DNA from: Alphaproteobacteria bacterium
GTDB lineage: Bacteria; Pseudomonadota; Alphaproteobacteria; Rs-D84
Reading direction: 5' to 3'
Assembly: GCA_017436325.1 (NCBI GenBank)
Contig: JAFSDI010000017.1
Location: 1-56,630 of the forward strand
DNA length: 56,630 nucleotides
The translations under genes were made by a program, and so were the position numbers. Positions 1-56,563 of the stretch are shown piece by piece (position 1 is the first letter of the stretch; the number at the start of each line of letters is the position of its first letter). The notes beneath the pieces were generated by a model that was not told where the DNA came from, ran no database searches, and saw nothing but the letters and a program-made list of their open reading frames with translations.

Positions 1-136
1 TGTCAACCTTAGACGATATTGCGGTTGCGATTTGTGATGCGACCTGTTCGCGCATATATGCACTGGACGGGATGCTGGCGATTGCCGGCGCAGTTGTCGA
101 AATTAGTGTAAGCGTTAAAAAAATTGTTTTTTTCAT
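1..136 (-). CDS. exported protein, N-terminal fragment (gene continues past the window start)
   Basis: The ATG at 136-134 (reverse strand) is preceded by the SD GCAGGAGGG (complement of 142-150). The translation MKKTIFLTLTLISTTAPAIASIPSSAYMREQVASQ... is a typical signal peptide. The ORF is missing from the ORF track only because the window edge truncates it. Confidence 0.45.
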   Translation of the reverse strand, partial: MKKTIFLTLTLISTTAPAIASIPSSAYMREQVASQIATAISSKVD

Positions 137-167
137 TTGTGCCCTCCTGCTTGGTTGGTTGTTAATT

Positions 168-420
168 AAAAAACCACTGAAAGTCTTTCTTATTCAAGTG
201 GTCAGGAGGTTAACGACAATCTTTGGAATTGTGCTGCTTATTCAGTATATTCGCAAGCCCTCCTGACCCATATCGGTCAGGAGTTTGTTCATCGAATAAA
301 AAATAGCGCGAACCTGCGCCAATAAATTTTTATTCAGACGCCAAAGAGAGGTCGTTACACCCCAATACGATAGTTCAATCGTATCGAGTTTATTGTATAT
401 TTTTTTGTCTGATTGTGCAA
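168..420 (-). promoter_or_regulatory. structured leader RNA module, copy 4 of 4 (promoter + hairpins + long-range helix + terminator) upstream of the 1-136 gene
   Basis: The promoter is TTGCAC-N17-TACAAT (complement of 415-420 and 392-397). In the RNA sense, X is CUCCUGACC (276-284), Y is GGUCAGGAGGG (258-268), a UAUAC motif lies at about 245-250, Z is CCUCCUGACC (200-209), and the terminator is CCACUUGAA/UUUCAGUGG plus U6 (168-201). Z is also complementary to the SD at 142-150. The module is homologous in layout to 28952-29243 and 56244-56536. Confidence 0.6.
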
Positions 421-599
421 TAGAAAAATACTTGTAAAAAAAATTGTTTTTTATTTTGATATTATTTATTGATTATCGACATTTTGCATGTAGACGCACA
501 TATGTTTATATATACCTACATTTTTATAGGGATAATATAACATAATTTATATTTTCTTGACAAGATAAAAAATCTTTCACGATGCAAAACATTGAAATA

Positions 600-619
600 C
601 ACCGCCCAAATGGGCGGTG
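600..619 (-). terminator. hairpin downstream of the autotransporter gene
   Basis: The hairpin CACCGCCC-AAAT-GGGCGGTG (8-bp GC-rich stem) lies 14 nt past the stop at 633. The trailing sequence on the minus strand is U-rich but not a clean U-run. Confidence 0.45.
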
Positions 620-632
620 CGGTTATAGATAG

Positions 633-3600
633 TTAAAATTCATATCTGAAATTTAAACGACCTGTTTGCGAGGTATAATCTTCGCGTGCTTCGATATCAT
701 AATTTAATGACATCTCTAGCCCCATATAATTCATACCGATACCAATACCAACTTCGTTCGCAATACGTGACAGACGTTCGCCACTTAATATATACGAATT
801 TACACCAGGCATCGTGACAACTATATCATTGTGGTCGGATATTAAATCGTACTTTAATGCATAACGAAGCTGTGGACGAATAATCCAACCGTTGTACATA
901 TAGATATCAAATTCATAACGTGTACCAAGCGATGCTGTTAAATAATTAGCATTGTCAAACTTGTTGCTGATACCCAATGAATTAGTGTAATCAGATGAAT
1001 CTAGGTACATATATTGCAAGGATAATTCCGGTGTAAGACCACCAAGAAATTCATACCCTGCGGCAACGCGCGCACCAAACGTATCAACATCATAATCCGA
1101 TGTTATACCAATGCCAAAGGCATTACCGTCTTCGTGATAATCTGCCATAGTATAATTCAATATCGCGTCCATATACCAGACACTTGGCTGATAATGACCA
1201 TAGATAAAGATACTTGATGAATCTATGTCCGTATCACGTGTAGCGCCTGAAATATCTGAGTGCGAATACATATAACCAGCACCTAAGGTCAAATCATCGG
1301 CAAACATTCTGTCAAAACCAACGGCAATACCGCGAGTGTAGCCATTAAATGCACTGCTATGTTTTGACTTGTTATACAGTCCCTGGGCCCAGATGCCACC
1401 AAATTCGACATCTGCATCACCGCCACTGCGACCAATGCCTGCCAACATCATACGATCTAAAACTAATGATGAAAGCGCGTTTTGCGTGTATACGCTGGCA
1501 GACTGTGCAACAAAGTTTTTTTCTGGGTTTATTGCAGCGCCCGCTTCTTCAACAGCAGCAATATCTGATGCTGTGCCAGAAGCTAGTTTTTCTTGGAATA
1601 TTACCGATAAGTCATTTAGACGAACAGACGAAGATTCTGATGAACTTGAAATTACACGCGCAGTTTCTGGTGTAATATTATTCTGTGACGCAATATCTTC
1701 AACAGATTTTATGGTCGCGGTCACATCGCCACCAGACCAGGTCAAATCATAAATCGAACTGACAATATCAATATTGTTAAATGTCTGATTGCCAAAGACG
1801 TGAAATATACCAGCCTTGTCCAAAGATAACTTTAATGTACCAGTGCCTGTAAAACCACCGTCATCATTCACTGTAATCTGTGCTGTATCCCCGCTGCGCA
1901 ATGTCGCCAACATCGTACCATCAAGAACTATTGAGCCCTGAGTTATATCACTGCTGCCGATATCCATCGTTGCACCAGTCGCGATATTTAGTATACCACC
2001 GCCTGTGATGCCGCCACTGAAAACAGAATCCGCGTTAAGGTTAATAGTTCCATCGTTGTGAATGTCATTCTGCACACCGTTTGCAGTGTTACCTTTAAAT
2101 GTTGCAGAACCGTTAAAGGTAACTGTATCATTATTATAAATCGCACCACCATAACCACCAGACGTGTTGTTCGTAAATGATACGTCATTATTAAATACTA
2201 TTGTTGATGTGCCTGTTGTGCCACCAGATGACGATACATAATTCCATATCGCACCGCCATCCAAGGTCGATGTATTTTTATTAAAATATGTCGAACCATT
2301 TATTGTAATATCAGAATCTTGACCAGAACCATCAAATGCACGCGCAACTATCGCACCACCATAGGCACCAGAACTGTTAGAATCAAAACGATTTATACTG
2401 TCTGCATCACCAATAACTAATGTTGCCGTTCCTGTATTGCCACGATTATGTATTGCGCCACCACCGCTTTTGGTCGCACCTGTATCATTGGCGATATTAC
2501 CTTGAAACGTATTTTGGGCACCTGTAATATTTAAATCACCGGCATTAAATATTGCACCACCATAACCACTGGCCGACTTATTACCTGTAAAAGATATATC
2601 TGATGCAGATAATGTTACAGTACCACCATTATCAAATGCACCGGCACTGTTGCTGGTCTGGTTTGCAGCAAACAAGATATTTCCAGTCGTATCTAATGAA
2701 ACAGAACCGCTATTCTTTAGGCCACCGCCATTGCTGCCACTGTTATTTGAAAAAATAAAATCACCAGATGTACCAATAATATTTCCCCTGTTTACCAAAG
2801 AACCATTTAAACTGTTTGTATTATCAGAAAATGTCGCACCATCGGAAAATGACACTGTTGCACTTGTAGAATTATTTAATAATGTACCAACACCAGTATT
2901 GCTGGAAAATGTCGCACTGTCTTTAAAGGTTAAACTGGACATCGCTTCGCCGATATATATCGCAGATGCACCTGATGCGACATTATTGCTGAAAGTCGCA
3001 GACTGTGCAAAAGTAGTATTACCGCCCATAATAGCAAGTGCACCACCACTTTTACCGGCGCTGTTACTGTCAAAACTTGCAGCACCATTAAATATCATAT
3101 CGCCAGCAGACATAATCGCACCACCCTGAGATGCTGATTCATTGCCAATAAAATTTGCATCGCCCGCAAAAACAATCATACCATTTCTGTGATTTATCGC
3201 ACCACCACCTGCATATACCCCATTCATACTTTCTGTAACTTGGTTATTACTGAAAGTCACAGAATCAGTAAATAATATATCTGGTGATGTTGCATTGCCA
3301 AGACCATAATTAAATATCGCACCACCACCATTGTTATTGTTGGTGGAATTATTTTCAAAGTTCGCAGAACCATTAAATATAATCTTGCCACCTTGTGTAT
3401 AACCAACACCAGACAATGATGATAGCCAGCCATTACCAATAACGCCACCCATACCGCCGTTATTCAGCGAATTTCCTGAAAAACTGCTGTCGCCATTAAA
3501 AACTAAATAGACACTTGGTACATCCTGCATATAAAAAACACCACCGTTGTTCGCAGTTGTCGAAGCAATGTTTTCTGCGACTAAATCTGTATACGTTGTG

Positions 3601-3710
3601 TTGGTATCAATAACTTGACGCGCTGTAATTGTTTCTGAGAACGCAGGCATAACCAATAATGCTGGCAATACAGACACACCCAGAAGTTTAGTATAAAAAT
3701 TGTTTTTCAT
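633..3710 (-). CDS. autotransporter outer-membrane protein with Pmp-type (GGAI / FxxN) passenger repeats
   Basis: The track ORF is 633-3785. I moved the start to the ATG at 3710, which has an AAGGA SD just upstream and is followed by the signal peptide MKNNFYTKLLGVSVLPALLVMPAFSE. The passenger domain carries many GGAI-type repeats (GGGAIFN, GGGAINH, QGGAIMS, YGGAIFN, GGGAIHN, YGGAIVA, DGGAIWN, YGGAIYN). The C-terminal beta-barrel-like domain ends in ...RLNFRYEF. Confidence 0.8.
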   Translation of the reverse strand: MKNNFYTKLLGVSVLPALLVMPAFSETITARQVIDTNTTYTDLVAENIASTTANNGGVFYMQDVPSVYLVFNGDSSFSGNSLNNGGMGGVIGNGWLSSLSGVGYTQGGKIIFNGSANFENNSTNNNNGGGAIFNYGLGNATSPDILFTDSVTFSNNQVTESMNGVYAGGGAINHRNGMIVFAGDANFIGNESASQGGAIMSAGDMIFNGAASFDSNSAGKSGGALAIMGGNTTFAQSATFSNNVASGASAIYIGEAMSSLTFKDSATFSSNTGVGTLLNNSTSATVSFSDGATFSDNTNSLNGSLVNRGNIIGTSGDFIFSNNSGSNGGGLKNSGSVSLDTTGNILFAANQTSNSAGAFDNGGTVTLSASDISFTGNKSASGYGGAIFNAGDLNITGAQNTFQGNIANDTGATKSGGGAIHNRGNTGTATLVIGDADSINRFDSNSSGAYGGAIVARAFDGSGQDSDITINGSTYFNKNTSTLDGGAIWNYVSSSGGTTGTSTIVFNNDVSFTNNTSGGYGGAIYNNDTVTFNGSATFKGNTANGVQNDIHNDGTINLNADSVFSGGITGGGILNIATGATMDIGSSDITQGSIVLDGTMLATLRSGDTAQITVNDDGGFTGTGTLKLSLDKAGIFHVFGNQTFNNIDIVSSIYDLTWSGGDVTATIKSVEDIASQNNITPETARVISSSSESSSVRLNDLSVIFQEKLASGTASDIAAVEEAGAAINPEKNFVAQSASVYTQNALSSLVLDRMMLAGIGRSGGDADVEFGGIWAQGLYNKSKHSSAFNGYTRGIAVGFDRMFADDLTLGAGYMYSHSDISGATRDTDIDSSSIFIYGHYQPSVWYMDAILNYTMADYHEDGNAFGIGITSDYDVDTFGARVAAGYEFLGGLTPELSLQYMYLDSSDYTNSLGISNKFDNANYLTASLGTRYEFDIYMYNGWIIRPQLRYALKYDLISDHNDIVVTMPGVNSYILSGERLSRIANEVGIGIGMNYMGLEMSLNYDIEAREDYTSQTGRLNFRYEF

Positions 3711-3858
3711 GTATATCCTTTTTTTTGCTTGTACATTTTTAGATATACAACTTGTGTAAAAAAAAATAACTAGGTTCGTTTTCACAACCTAGTTATTAAG
3801 ATAAATTTTATAAAATTATTAAGACATTTCAATTAACATAATAAATAAATTATGTTAC

Positions 3859-11484: not shown

Positions 11485-11569
<85 letters not shown>

Positions 11570-11610
11570 AACCTTTCCCCCCCGCGGATAACAATTGAGC
11601 CATAAGTAAA

Positions 11611-11687
11611 ATGTAGAAATTGGTAGACGCGCTGAATTTAGGTTCCCTGCGCAACCCATAAGAGTGCGCCGCTCTTTACCCGCACCA
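11611..11687 (+). pseudogene. decayed tandem duplicate of tRNA-Leu (non-functional)
   Basis: Residues GAAATTGGTAGACGCGCTGAATTTAGGTTCC...CATAAGAGTGCGCCGCTCTTTACCCGCACCAAACCTTACCCCCCGCG repeat the tRNA and its 3' flank. The 5' acceptor strand is missing, the anticodon stem is broken, and the T-arm is mutated (GAGTGCGCCGCTC). Confidence 0.6.
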
Positions 11688-11774
11688 AACCTTACCCCCC
11701 GCGCGCAACAGGTCAAAAATTCCTTTGAATACTGTCATATATATAAAAGCCCAAATTTATGATATATTCTTATT

Positions 11775-13521: not shown

Positions 13522-13792
13522 AGTTTATTTATAAAATATAAGCACAAAGTTCCCAGATTAAGAAAACTTTTTTAATCAGACATTCAACAACCTTTCATAT
13601 ATAAAGCATTCCATTTGTGGTGATATTTTTTTGATAAACCGTATATATTCATCAAAAAACTATAACTGGCACAACCATCCAAGGTACAATAACTATATTG
13701 ACTGCTGCATTGCGCGTGGCCTGTTATACTGCCCAAATTGCCATAATTAGCACTAAAGGTCATAGTTGATTCATCTGCGGTATAATCAATCG

Positions 13793-28951: not shown

Positions 28952-29243
28952 TTGATAAAGCACGTATTCTGTGATATAATTTATCGTGAAATCGCAGGGA
29001 TGCGCTTTCGGGGCCTTAGAAAAGCCTTTCAAGAATCCATATAAGCAAAACTTATATTGGAAATCCGCGCATAAATGGCGCGTTTTGCGCTTTTTTTTGT
29101 GCAATTTGCCCTGTGCAAAATATATTTTGTCGGGGTGCCGTCGGTTATACCACAGGGGCCCAGCGCCCCAAAGACCGATGGGATCGATATTCTTGACGAT
29201 TTTTCTAACACCCCGACCGCCTTGTATCCTGTGGCGGATTTTT
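28952..29243 (+). promoter_or_regulatory. structured leader RNA module, copy 1 of 4 (promoter + 5' hairpin domain + three-way-junction domain + terminator) upstream of the 29266-30597 operon
   Basis: The promoter is TTGATA (28952-57), a 17-nt spacer, then TATAAT (28975-80). The 5' domain has hairpins and ends in a GC hairpin plus T8 (29091-98). P1 pairs GUCGGGGUG (29129-37) with CACCCCGAC (29209-17). P2 pairs CCGUCGGU (29138-45) with ACCGAUGG (29174-81). The UAUACCACAG motif lies at 29146-55. The terminator is CCGCC-N11-GGCGG-AUUUUU (29217-43). Confidence 0.65.
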
Positions 29244-29265
29244 AATAAAAAAAAACAGGAATATT

Positions 29266-29556
29266 ATGAAATTTATTTTTTGTGGAATTTTATTGTTAAT
29301 ACCGCCGTTTACAGGTATGGCTGTCACACTTGCAGAAAAGCAGGCAATTGTTAATCAACTGAATCTGGAGATTCAGGAACTGGACAAACAACTGATAAAA
29401 TGCAAAAAAAATAAAACTGTTTGGCAGGCAACAACTGCCACCGGCAGCATCGGAAATATTCTGACAGGCATAGGTATCGTATCAAAAACAAAGCAATTAA
29501 AACAATTAAACGCAGATGCACAACAAAAAACAGAAGGTGAAGGCAATGAACAATAA
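29266..29556 (+). CDS. small exported coiled-coil protein, unknown family (paralogue of the next gene)
   Basis: An AGGA SD lies upstream. The signal peptide is MKFIFCGILLLIPPFTGMA. A coiled coil is followed by the Gly/Thr-rich hydrophobic segment TTATGSIGNILTGIGIV. Confidence 0.55.
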   Translation: MKFIFCGILLLIPPFTGMAVTLAEKQAIVNQLNLEIQELDKQLIKCKKNKTVWQATTATGSIGNILTGIGIVSKTKQLKQLNADAQQKTEGEGNEQ

Positions 29557-39706: not shown

Positions 39707-39778
39707 ATATAAAAATTCAAAAATCTGATATAGCCATAACAATATCATTTATATTGATTTTTTAATTCATAATTGTAG

Positions 39779-39974
39779 CCGAACTTGATAATAAAAAGTT
39801 CGGGGATTTCAAGTCCCATAAGCCGAGATATTTTAAACATCAGTTTATTTTGCCTGACCTAGGTTGGTTGGCTATCAGTAGTTATACAACAGTTTTTTCC
39901 AAAAGCTAAGAAGCCATTCGGCTTAACCCGACCATCATATCTTGAAAAAAACCGCGTGGGTGCGCGGTTTTTTT
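39779..39974 (+). ncRNA. structured leader RNA module, copy 3 of 4 (shorter and degenerate; no downstream ORF)
   Basis: Hairpin 1 pairs CCGAACUU with AAGUUCGG (39779-39803) and is followed by GGGG, as in the other copies. The UAUACAACAG motif lies at 39883-92. P1 pairs GGUUGG (39862-67) with CCGACC (39928-33). A P4-like hairpin AAGCC-AUUC-GGCUU is present. The terminator is ACCGCG-N6-CGCGGU plus U7 (39951-74). Confidence 0.45.
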
Positions 39975-40030
39975 CTTGCGGTATTCTCAATATAAACTGA
40001 GAAAAGGAGGAAACTTTAATCTTGTTGCCC

Positions 40031-42259: not shown

Positions 42260-43282
42260 TTAAGATTTTTTTTCACCACTATTTATCTGCCAACGCCATG
42301 CAGACTGTAACGTATTTGATAGCGGAACTTTTGCACGCCAATTTAAAACCTTTGCCGCAGATGTTGCATCCGCCCAAATCGCAGGAACATCACCGTCACG
42401 ACGCGCAACTATTTCATATGGAACAGAAACGCCAGTCGCATCACGAAACGCATCTATCAATTCCATAACCGAATAACCGCGACCAGTCCCAAGATTAAAT
42501 GTACTTACACCATCTGTACCAGACAACATATTATTTAATGCCGCAACATGCGCCGCAGCCAAATCATTAACATCAATATAATCGCGAATACAAAAACCAT
42601 CTGGTGTATCATAATCATTACCAAAAACACGTAATATCGGACGAATTCCCGCCGCAGTTTGTGTTATGTACGGCATCAAATTATTCGGTATGCCAGATGG
42701 ATTTTCCCCAATAAATCCAGATGGATGCGCACCAATAGGATTAAAATAACGCAATAATGTCGCGCGCATCTTTGGATTTGCTGCGACACAATCACGAACA
42801 ATCGTTTCACCAATTACCTTGGTCTGGCCGTATGGCGATGTCGCCGGCTGAAGCGGGGTGTCTTCGGTGACAGGCAACGTTTCAGGCACACCATATACTG
42901 TTGCAGATGAAGAAAATACAATACTGGGGATTTCAAATTCTGTCATACATAATAACACATTCATCAATCCAACAAGATTATTGCGATAATATAACAATGG
43001 ACGTTGCACAGATTCACCCACAGCCTTTAACGCAGCAAAATGTATCACACCAACCGCATCAGAATGCCGCGAAAAAGCATCACGAAGCGCAGATAAGTCT
43101 GTACAATCAATCTGAACAAATTCGGGGCGCGTGCCTGTTATACGCTCAATGCCATACAATGAATCTGTTGTGGAATTTGATAAATTGTCAAAAACAACAA
43201 CCTTGAAACCAGATTCTTGTAACGCAACCGCGGTATGCGAACCAATATAACCTGTGCCACCTGTAATTATTATATTTTGCAT
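42260..43282 (-). CDS. galE: UDP-glucose 4-epimerase
   Basis: The motifs are MQNIIITGGTGYIGSH (Rossmann GxxGxxG), ...SSSATVYG and ...YGQTK (YxxxK). A length of 340 aa fits GalE. Confidence 0.9.
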   Translation of the reverse strand: MQNIIITGGTGYIGSHTAVALQESGFKVVVFDNLSNSTTDSLYGIERITGTRPEFVQIDCTDLSALRDAFSRHSDAVGVIHFAALKAVGESVQRPLLYYRNNLVGLMNVLLCMTEFEIPSIVFSSSATVYGVPETLPVTEDTPLQPATSPYGQTKVIGETIVRDCVAANPKMRATLLRYFNPIGAHPSGFIGENPSGIPNNLMPYITQTAAGIRPILRVFGNDYDTPDGFCIRDYIDVNDLAAAHVAALNNMLSGTDGVSTFNLGTGRGYSVMELIDAFRDATGVSVPYEIVARRDGDVPAIWADATSAAKVLNWRAKVPLSNTLQSAWRWQINSGEKKS

Positions 43283-56243: not shown

Positions 56244-56536
56244 TTGCAACAGGTTCGCTTTTTCGATATAATAAAAGTTGAACTGGATGGGAATCTGGTT
56301 CGGGGCTGTCACAAGCCTGACTAATCCGGTGCAAATATATGTGAACATATATTAAGTGTCGTTATTCCGACAAAGATATTTCCTGTATTTGCATCGCAAT
56401 CTTGATTATCCCTGACTTTTATGGTCGGGGGGCTGTCCGCTATACAACAGGTGTTTACACTAAAAGCGGGCAGAATCAGTGATTAGTTGATTTGTGAACT
56501 CCCCGACCGCATTGATTTTCATTGCGGTTTCTTTTT
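56244..56536 (+). promoter_or_regulatory. structured leader RNA module, copy 2 of 4, upstream of the 56564 gene
   Basis: The promoter is TTGCAA (56244-49), a 17-nt spacer, then TATAAT (56267-72). Hairpin 1 pairs UUGAAC with GUUCGG and is followed by GG. X is CCCUGAC (56411-17). P1 pairs GGUCGGGGGG (56423-32) with CUCCCCGACC (56499-508). P2 pairs CUGUCCGC (56433-40) with GCGGGCAG (56466-73). The UAUACAACAG motif lies at 56441-50. The terminator is CCGCAUUG-N5-CAUUGCGG-UUUCUUUUU (56507-36). Confidence 0.65.
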
Positions 56537-56563
56537 ACACAAACAATTAAAGCGGGGGACATT

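Follow-up and report, generated by a model that had tools for sequence, protein, structure and literature searches.

Control of a transcription terminator by alternative RNA helices is a known principle. Classical three-tier attenuators include the trp leader, with its segment pairings 1:2, 2:3 and 3:4, the pyr operon leader with PyrR and the T-box leaders. Leader RNAs can also be multiplied within a genome: c-di-GMP-I (GEMM-I) riboswitches occur in multiple copies before adhesin and surface-protein genes, where they act on terminators, and the alphaproteobacterial Brt leader-like RNAs, restricted to the genus Bartonella, are multi-copy RNAs of ~200 nucleotides (nt) that carry their own promoter and a terminator directly before genes encoding DNA-binding regulators. 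Here we analyze a structured leader RNA, called c4, on the minus strand of an Alphaproteobacteria metagenome contig (JAFSDI010000017.1, assembly GCA_017436325.1), whose whole 56,630-nt stretch is referred to below as the window, together with the RNA family to which c4 belongs. In this family the principle is met in an unusual and heavily replicated form.

The closest relative of these leaders in Rfam, sRNA-Xcc1 (RF02221), is an 88-nt Xanthomonas RNA encoded in integron cassettes 5' of symE (PMC2996969; bioRxiv 10.1101/2025.06.18.660453). The family presented here is large and apparently without description in Rfam 15 or in the searchable literature; queries on Enterousia, sRNA-Xcc1, symE and general terms returned no account of a c4-like RNA. 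Comparison of its sequences establishes the family, its helices, the mutual exclusivity of these helices and their link to downstream genes. On this basis the RNA is probably a transcription attenuator, off by default, that precedes genes for exported proteins.

Copies and subfamilies of the leader RNA

Exactly four copies were found when the window was searched, with all filters off, by two covariance models. R1 represents the 3' domain of the c2/c3 type and was built with c4 and c1 left out; R2 represents the c4 type at full length (181 positions) and was built from 70 metagenome sequences, again leaving c4 out. The copy under study, c4, occupies 166-388 on the minus strand (R2 97.2 bits, E ~1e-24, model positions 1-181 of 181). 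The others are on the plus strand: c2 at 28981-29249 (R1 107.9 bits), 5' of a gene for a small protein with a hydrophobic N-terminus (29266-29556); c3 at 56273-56539 (R1 116.6 bits), 5' of an open reading frame (ORF) starting MNKKILLGSIF; and c1 at 39775-39979 (R1 26.8 bits, E = 1.9e-5), a degenerate orphan with no same-strand gene downstream. R1 recovers c4 as well, at 31.0 bits (E = 1.3e-6), the best spurious match in the window reaching 14.3 bits. Both models recognize c4 without having been built from it. The c4 leader also folds with far lower energy than its shuffled counterparts (-78.0 vs -48.1 +/- 4.1 kcal/mol, z = -7.3).

Two sequence sets were gathered. A DNA pattern derived from c2 and c3 and scanned over one-genome-per-species contigs returned at least 111 copies, hereafter type I; among the matches listed, nearly all hosts are Candidatus Enterousia or uncultured gut Alphaproteobacteria known as metagenome-assembled genomes, and the sources are humans, ruminants and mice. 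Enterousia belongs to the order Rs-D84, whose genomes are mostly smaller than 1 Mb (PMC12306168). Applied to related loci, R1 brought up a further, c4-like group at 28-41 bits, and a pattern drawn from these matches returned at least 120 copies, hereafter type II, from gut metagenome contigs. Covariance models were needed because an nhmmer profile of type I did not find c4. Enterousia loci hold both types, and the loci chosen for type I contain eight type II copies in 740 kb. The loci chosen for type II contain a single type I copy in 572 kb, so the host range of type II may be wider or different.

Types I and II have a common architecture and different conserved cores. The type I core is the internal loop UAUACAACAG / AAAG, which surrounds a GGG/CCC hairpin; that of type II is a 15-nt hairpin loop, GAAUAUAYWGAAUAAG, which is nearly invariant in the 70 seed sequences, the scan pattern having itself fixed 12 of the 15 positions; the stem below it, Pe', varies from copy to copy (UGUG:CACA, GCGGGU:ACCCGC, UGGUC:GACCA). 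By sequence, c4 is a type II RNA and c2, c3 and c1 are of type I. The marks of type II in c4 are the loop GAAUAUACUGAAUAA (252-238), the Z start AACCUCC (211-205) and the ACAAU/AUUGU hairpin, whose loop CCAAAG pairs with CUUUGG (346-341). Its match to R1 is confined to the Y:Z helix, the terminator and the junction that precedes Z, and the local alignment skips the core; c4 is thus related to type I but is not a member of that subfamily. The first-pass annotation had taken c4 for a further copy of the RNA represented by c2 and c3. The three intervals do align with one another and the shared architecture stands, but c4 belongs to a distinct subfamily with its own conserved core. In the orphan c1, which has UAUACAACAG as its type I core, the next gene is convergent, and the strong terminator of c1 may act for the genes on either side.

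Competing helices in the leader

The elements listed by the first-pass annotation between 168 and 420 on the minus strand are all where it placed them. In the direction of transcription, the putative promoter (392-420) is a sequence reading of TTGCAC (420-415), a 17-nt spacer and TACAAT (397-392); a simple scanner lists a promoter-like site at 419-392 (-) with 9 of 12 matches, and it finds such sites no more often than in shuffled sequence, so that this one is indistinguishable from chance. Type I copies show a -10-like box just 5' of their first hairpin. In c4 this 5'-terminal hairpin, P1 (364-385), reads GAUACGAU-UGAACU-AUCGUAU(U), with eight base pairs and the loop UGAACU, and is seen in the minimum-energy fold and in type II covariation. 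GGGG (360-363) follows directly and forms, with the next base, the G1 box GGGGU (359-363), which can pair either with ACCUC of Z (helix Pa) or with an adjacent C box, ACCUC at 352-348 (helix P2). The 5' strands of two long-range helices come next: UAACGAC of Pb (351-357), paired with 217-211 in the minimum-energy fold, and UCUUUGG of Pc (341-347), paired with CCAAAGA (226-220). Pd (290-340) is a variable branched hairpin in the same fold, and holds both an A/U hairpin and a GC hairpin with U6.

Downstream of Pd lie the X box CUCCUGACC (275-283), which pairs with Y and would be the anti-antiterminator strand, and the Shine-Dalgarno-like Y box GGUCAGGAGG (259-268), which pairs with X or with Z. 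The Pe' hairpin (233-257), with UAUAC at 249-245 inside its conserved loop, is a candidate sensor. H2 (216-232; ACAAU-UCCAAAG-AUUGU) offers its loop as the Pc 3' strand, to which its first 3' stem base is added, and is followed by the Pb 3' strand GUCGUUA (211-217), supported by the minimum-energy fold and type II covariation. The Z box (200-210) is A-CCUCCUGACC, Z itself being CCUCCUGACC at 209-200; its 5' part pairs with G1 and the whole box with Y. Its last CC opens the stem of the intrinsic terminator (168-201), which consists of a stem-loop at 201-174 with one U-C mismatch and U6 at 173-168.

Two global folds can be assembled from these helices. Fold A combines Pa, Pb and Pc with an X:Y hairpin and leaves the terminator free; fold B combines P2, H2 and Y:Z, the last of which occupies bases at the terminator foot. 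In the minimum-energy folds of c2, c3 and c4, the GGGG after the first hairpin pairs with the C-run of Z, this pairing continues into long-range helices and X:Y forms a hairpin. In c4, Pa is seen in the minimum-energy fold and P2 once Y:Z is enforced. With the transcript ending 8 nt past Z, enforcing X:Y gives -68.6 kcal/mol in c4 and -85.2 kcal/mol in c3, vs -58.6 and -78.3 kcal/mol, respectively, when Y:Z is enforced. X:Y and Y:Z, Pa and Y:Z, and Pa and P2 cannot coexist because the members of each couple have nucleotides in common.

Covariation was counted in 40 diverse type I copies, aligned by MAFFT alone for all helices including the long-range ones, and in 110 type II copies aligned to R2. 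Since R2 contained neither Y:Z nor P2, the type II alignment was not fitted to these two helices. Pairs changed on both sides in type I amount to 6/9 in P1, 5/6 in Pb, 8/8 in Pc, 5/6 at the base of Pd, 6/7 in Pe and 3/7 in the terminator. The overall type I covariation score is 0.444, vs 0.187 for shuffles and at most 0.116 with slid partners. In type II the corresponding counts are 7/7 in P1, 5/6 in Pb, 5/5 at the base of Pd, 5/8 in X:Y and 4/5 in the terminator. Pb is paired in 99.6% of type I cells and 99.2% of type II cells. Because MAFFT misaligned Pc and Pe in type II, Pc was evaluated there by pairing each 5' strand with the H2 loop of its own copy or of other copies, which gave -10.1 vs -5.2 kcal/mol (p = 7e-45); the partners in c4 are CUUUGG (346-341) and CCAAAG (226-221). 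H2 itself changed on both sides at all four of its pairs, one of them being AU in 50 copies, UA in 49 and CG in 5, with 99.8% of cells paired. One copy, L080, combines a G1 box GGGC with GCUCC in Z.

The Y:Z helix, proposed in the first-pass annotation from compensatory differences between two copies, proves to be real. Among the 40 type I copies, the first pair outside the core fixed by the scan pattern is AU in 12, GU in 11, UA in 11 and GC in 6, and none is unpaired, vs about half of the sequences at the matching position of X:Y; in type II, 6/9 pairs changed on both sides. Complementary forms include GGUCAGGAGG with CCUCCUGACC in c4, GGUUGGAGG with CCUCCAACC, GGCAGGAGG with CCUCCUGCC and, in type I, GGUCGGGGAG with CUCCCCGACC; in c3, the copy taken for the original comparison, Y is GGUCGGGGGG (56423-56432) and Z is CUCCCCGACC (56499-56508). 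The Y and Z sequences of the original two-copy comparison were correctly read, but as the copies belong to different subfamilies that comparison was weaker evidence than had been assumed. X was rightly described as a near-copy of Z: it co-varies with the Y/Z forms, in 103 of 110 sequences it is identical to Z at the variable position, and its own pairing with Y covaries too, so that two conserved, mutually exclusive pairings compete for Y.

P2 is a local hairpin of G box and C box with the Pb 5' strand in its loop. All three of its pairs changed on both sides in type II (pair 41:55 is GC in 72 copies, GU in 18 and AU in 16). Type I shows G-C/G-U variation at P2 and nothing further, and for this reason the case for P2 comes from type II. 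G-U pairs are abundant throughout the leader, for example in 89 of 110 type II copies at pair 41:367, and show that selection acts on the RNA of this strand.

As had been claimed, the 5' strand of the terminator begins inside Z: the two share 2-4 nt. Y:Z takes 3/7 terminator pairs in type I and 2/5 in type II, and these are the G-C pairs beside the U-tract. Such pairs matter most for intrinsic termination. The structural part of the first-pass interpretation is supported, and it is extended by Pa, Pb and Pc, by P2 and by the role of H2, whose loop is the partner of a 5' strand, none of which had been noticed. A loop-loop kissing interaction between P1 and the conserved type II loop was considered and dropped, as c4 does not fit it. 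The Pd segment at 304-321 (-), a GC hairpin followed by U6, scores terminator-like, and similar hairpins with U-runs are present in c2 and several type I and type II copies; these hairpins could be early termination checkpoints or be purely structural.

Controlled genes, proposed attenuation and rival explanations

Of 106 type I copies, 91 are followed on the same strand by a Shine-Dalgarno sequence and start codon, as are 85 of 107 type II copies. The start codon lies a median of 23 nt (type I) or 25.5 nt (type II) past the end of the U-run, too close to leave room for a separate promoter. In c4, the Shine-Dalgarno sequence CAGGAGG (149-143) and the ATG (136-134) of the controlled gene, together spanning 134-149 (-), lie ~30 nt past the U-tract. 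The gene is complete in another assembly, where it is an ORF of 81 amino acids (aa) with a signal-peptide-like start; the second gene of the operon encodes a 668-aa repeat protein that likewise has a signal-peptide-like start. A hydrophobic N-terminal segment is found in 71 of 81 complete downstream proteins vs 4 of 54 internal control windows. Most of the downstream proteins are without a Pfam domain, and the few matches are to outer-membrane barrels, Opacity, Surface_Ag_2, a YadA anchor and surface-glycan transferases. Pfam searches with the proteins of the c4 operon and other controlled proteins gave nothing informative, a PKD match remaining below the cut-off. The ORFs downstream of leaders at loci L007, L015, L027, L047, L074, L085 and L089, and the one at 1-136 (-) of the window, share a motif after the signal peptide, for example IPSxxYxxxQ[IV]ASQIATA..SKVD or ALVSRGFLDEALENYATTTAL. 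The proteins with this motif appear, from their sequences, to be a lineage-specific secreted family with no Pfam match.

The Shine-Dalgarno sites of controlled genes are unusual. GGGG or GGGA is present in 71% of type I and 41% of type II genes and GGAGG in 2% and 24%, in sets where a motif was required so that a no-motif class does not apply; among 36 other genes of the same genome, 2 have GGGG or GGGA and 20 have no Shine-Dalgarno motif, GGAGG not being scored separately. Z of c4 (CCUCCUG) is complementary to CAGGAGG, from which the first-pass annotation had proposed that Z acts as an anti-Shine-Dalgarno strand. This idea gains statistical support, in that Shine-Dalgarno sequences differ in type along with Z: among copies with CCUCCUGA as Z, 6 of 11 have CAGGAG, vs 1 of 82 others (p = 4e-6), some of these copies being mutually orthologous. 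The association speaks for a link of Z with the Shine-Dalgarno sequence, under two caveats: start codons were accepted only together with a Shine-Dalgarno-like motif, and any strong site of this kind also fits a CCUCC-like box. GGGGGA-type sites are also seen without a leader, before the gene at 42260-43282 (-) and before the 668-aa second gene of the c4 operon.

We infer on good grounds that the c4 leader is regulatory. Its stem-loop and U6 (201-168) stand directly before an ORF starting at 136, and Y:Z, X:Y, Pa and P2 are covariation-supported helices that overlap one another. In the mechanism that we propose, the putative promoter would drive a structured leader of ~220 nt that ends in an intrinsic terminator before an exported-protein operon. 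In fold A, the 5' G box would pair with the 5' part of Z (Pa), an interaction extended by the copy-specific helices Pb and Pc, and X would take Y; the 3' end of Z would then be free, the terminator would form and transcription would stop. In fold B, the G box would pair with the adjacent C box (P2), H2 would form and Y would pair with the whole of Z, removing the G-C pairs at the terminator foot beside the U-tract and allowing RNA polymerase to read through. X:Y can form first because X is transcribed before Z; for the same reason, and because fold A is 7-10 kcal/mol more stable, the default would be 'off', that is termination, and fold B would need a factor to favour it. Such a factor would likely contact the 15-nt loop GAAUAUAYWGAAUAAG in c4-type leaders or the internal loop resembling that of sRNA-Xcc1 in c2/c3-type leaders. 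A translational layer could be added, as Z and its look-alike X could pair with the Shine-Dalgarno sequence. All of the following is inferred: the choice between termination and read-through, which way the switch works, that there is a trigger and of what kind, and that the Shine-Dalgarno sequence is masked. With a metabolite riboswitch in mind, conserved unpaired nucleotides are found, and the controlled genes encode diverse exported proteins, mostly without Pfam domains.

Several observations weigh against attenuation. Fold A is far more stable, and fold B may never form without a partner; Y:Z could also, judging from the models, coexist with Pb and Pc as a pseudoknot and so not be an alternative to them. 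The overlap of Y:Z with the terminator is only 2 nt in c4-type copies, and both sequence sets were gathered with patterns that fix the Y and Z cores. The c4 ortholog of another sample (L115, ~13560-13590, corresponding to window 205-232) has a patch that breaks Pb and Pc. Two differences separate it from c4, this patch of ~25 nt over the H2 loop and Pb 3' strand and, close by, a minor change in the loop of the terminator; its 5' strands are unchanged and the patch is identical to a different copy, L074, which suggests recombination between leader copies. The orphan c1 faces a convergent gene and has none to control. In contig Ga0073906_1009298 (L139), positions 154-1002 (+) hold four head-to-tail type II copies (104-133 bits each, 34-84 nt apart), and no exported-protein gene comes directly after: the array is followed by an S21 gene on the other strand and then by a gene for an MsbA-like ABC transporter.

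The orphan, tandem and patched copies keep a small-RNA role alive, and they bear most directly on the view that these are free-standing small RNAs, always ending at the terminator and acting in trans or titrating a protein, their adjacency to genes being secondary. Every copy comes with a promoter-like box of its own and with a strong terminator, the terminating fold A is the thermodynamic ground state, several GGA/GGG boxes are possible protein-binding sites, and sRNA-Xcc1 was detected on Northern blots as a discrete 88-nt RNA (PMC2996969). We nevertheless regard this view as unlikely, because 79-86% of copies are followed on the same strand, at a fixed short distance that leaves no promoter room, by a Shine-Dalgarno sequence and start, and the type of that sequence tracks the type of Z. 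Pb and Pc are moreover copy-specific, so that there would be no common seed for target pairing, and an always-terminating RNA would have no obvious need for a fold that competes with the terminator, yet this fold is kept by covariation.

A further candidate is a mainly translational element, or one acting on the fate of the mRNA. Z or X would mask the Shine-Dalgarno sequence, or the mRNA would be stabilized or localized, and the 'terminator' would be mostly a structural or stabilizing hairpin. The complementarity of Z to the Shine-Dalgarno sequence extends over 7 bp in c4 and over 8 bp in the copy at L074, the mean duplex energies are -8.8 and -8.6 kcal/mol vs -3.2 kcal/mol for background genes, the controlled genes have strong G-rich sites in a genome where many other genes have none, and the downstream proteins are nearly all exported. 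Much of this signal is expected from any strong Shine-Dalgarno site; such sites form just as good a duplex with the anti-Shine-Dalgarno sequence of 16S rRNA, and the background comparison is biased by the choice of start codons, as the finder demanded a Shine-Dalgarno-like motif, a bias that weighs on the attenuation reading too. The hairpin carries a canonical U-tract and its stem covaries, and we consider a mainly translational role decidedly improbable. Very improbable, finally, are ribosome-mediated attenuation of the trp type and a DNA-level repeat or mobile element without RNA function. X:Y, Y:Z and Z:terminator do resemble the trp segments 1:2, 2:3 and 3:4, but a conserved leader peptide is rejected, an AUG at one recurrent position being present in only 41 of 110 copies with ORFs of 6-43 codons. 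The many copies per genome and the sign of recombination between them would suit a mobile repeat; against it stand compensatory changes and strand-specific G-U pairs throughout the RNA and the fixed position and orientation before genes, and neither terminal inverted repeats nor transposase genes were seen. Attenuation of transcription thus remains the reading that we favour.

Relatives, genomic surroundings and biological meaning

In scans against Rfam 15 at gathering and at permissive thresholds, no family reached its threshold for c4 or for type I copies, and none of 18 loci checked attained the sRNA-Xcc1 cut-off. The Y-to-Z domain of type I nevertheless aligns with RF02221 over its full length, at 29-41 bits in c3 and 11 of 14 loci, the cut-off being 53 bits and true members scoring 69-70 bits; it is the best match apart from tRNA, and the 3' domain of c3 scores 33.9 bits. 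The resemblance resides in fold B of type I, a three-way junction with a G/C-rich closing helix (GGUCGGGG:CCCCGACC, vs GGCCGGGG:CCCCGGCC in the Rfam consensus), a second hairpin and an arm with the internal loop AUACAA-A / (G)AA around a short GGG/CCC hairpin, in which the sRNA-Xcc1 loop AUACAAUA / GAA around its CCC...GGG hairpin is present in outline. In c4, Y:Z also closes two hairpins, but the internal loop of sRNA-Xcc1 is absent and there is no match to sRNA-Xcc1 even at E <= 10. The leaders further differ from sRNA-Xcc1 in being 2-3 times longer (~220 nt), in having a separate terminator and in adding a 5' domain (P1, the G box, the Pb and Pc strands, Pd and X) that competes with the junction. 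They are chromosomal, next to housekeeping, outer-membrane and exported-protein genes, and neither integrase nor symE was seen among the neighbours examined.

Two true sRNA-Xcc1 elements were encountered, at 882-1020 of L239, a Nitratidesulfovibrio plasmid (69.7 bits), and at 885-970 of L238, a Neisseria gonorrhoeae record (68.8 bits). On the former, a hypothetical gene with the GGAGG-bearing Shine-Dalgarno sequence AAAGGAGG begins 46 nt past the element. This hints that sRNA-Xcc1 may itself be a 5' leader, either in place of or in addition to being a small RNA that acts in trans.

With the classical attenuators the c4 family would have in common an antiterminator, Y:Z, that uses the 5' strand of the terminator, anti-antiterminators, X:Y and Pa, and termination as the default. 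Unlike the trp attenuator it has no conserved leader peptide, and unlike T-box and PyrR-dependent leaders it has no T-box, PyrR-site or other Rfam match; its anti-antiterminator is peculiar in including ~20 bp of copy-specific long-range helices. By analogy, it resembles the c-di-GMP-I riboswitches in the several to many leader copies per genome that precede surface-protein genes and carry a terminator, and differs from them in lacking any Rfam riboswitch match and in comprising two subfamilies with different cores. The Bartonella Brt RNAs, compared by description only, differ in the nature of their genes, those of the c4 family encoding exported proteins; general Rfam scans turned up no similarity, no search having been aimed at Brt.

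Other features of the window deserve mention. The gene at 633-3785 (-) encodes a 1050-aa protein that matches Autotransporter and, faintly, Chlam_PMP in Pfam, and has no leader copy upstream; two outer-membrane protein beta-barrel genes lie nearby, and the region is thus rich in envelope proteins. On the plus strand, a degenerate second copy of tRNA-Leu is present at ~11600-11700, just 3' of the intact gene at 11485-11569, and is called by neither ARAGORN nor Rfam.

We put forward as a tentative possibility that these leaders are RNA switches of a new class, responsive to a factor or a ligand. They would bring a considerable share of the exported and surface proteins of gut symbionts with genomes below 1 Mb (Candidatus Enterousia, Rs-D84 and relatives) under one signal, each genome holding from about ten to a few tens of leaders. 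With their different cores, the two subfamilies could read two different signals, and the terminated leader RNAs might themselves act as small RNAs. More than 200 natural variants are at hand in which covariation records both conformations, a situation that is rare and useful for the study of RNA-switch design. If the proposed function is correct, the sRNA-Xcc1 motif, which is poorly understood, might also have a role in cis-regulation, and a single RNA switch, present in many copies, would steer the exported and surface proteins of bacteria whose genomes are very small and poor in classical regulators. The leaders would then offer an entry point into an uncultured gut lineage, to the signal that it senses and to the way in which it deploys its surface proteins.

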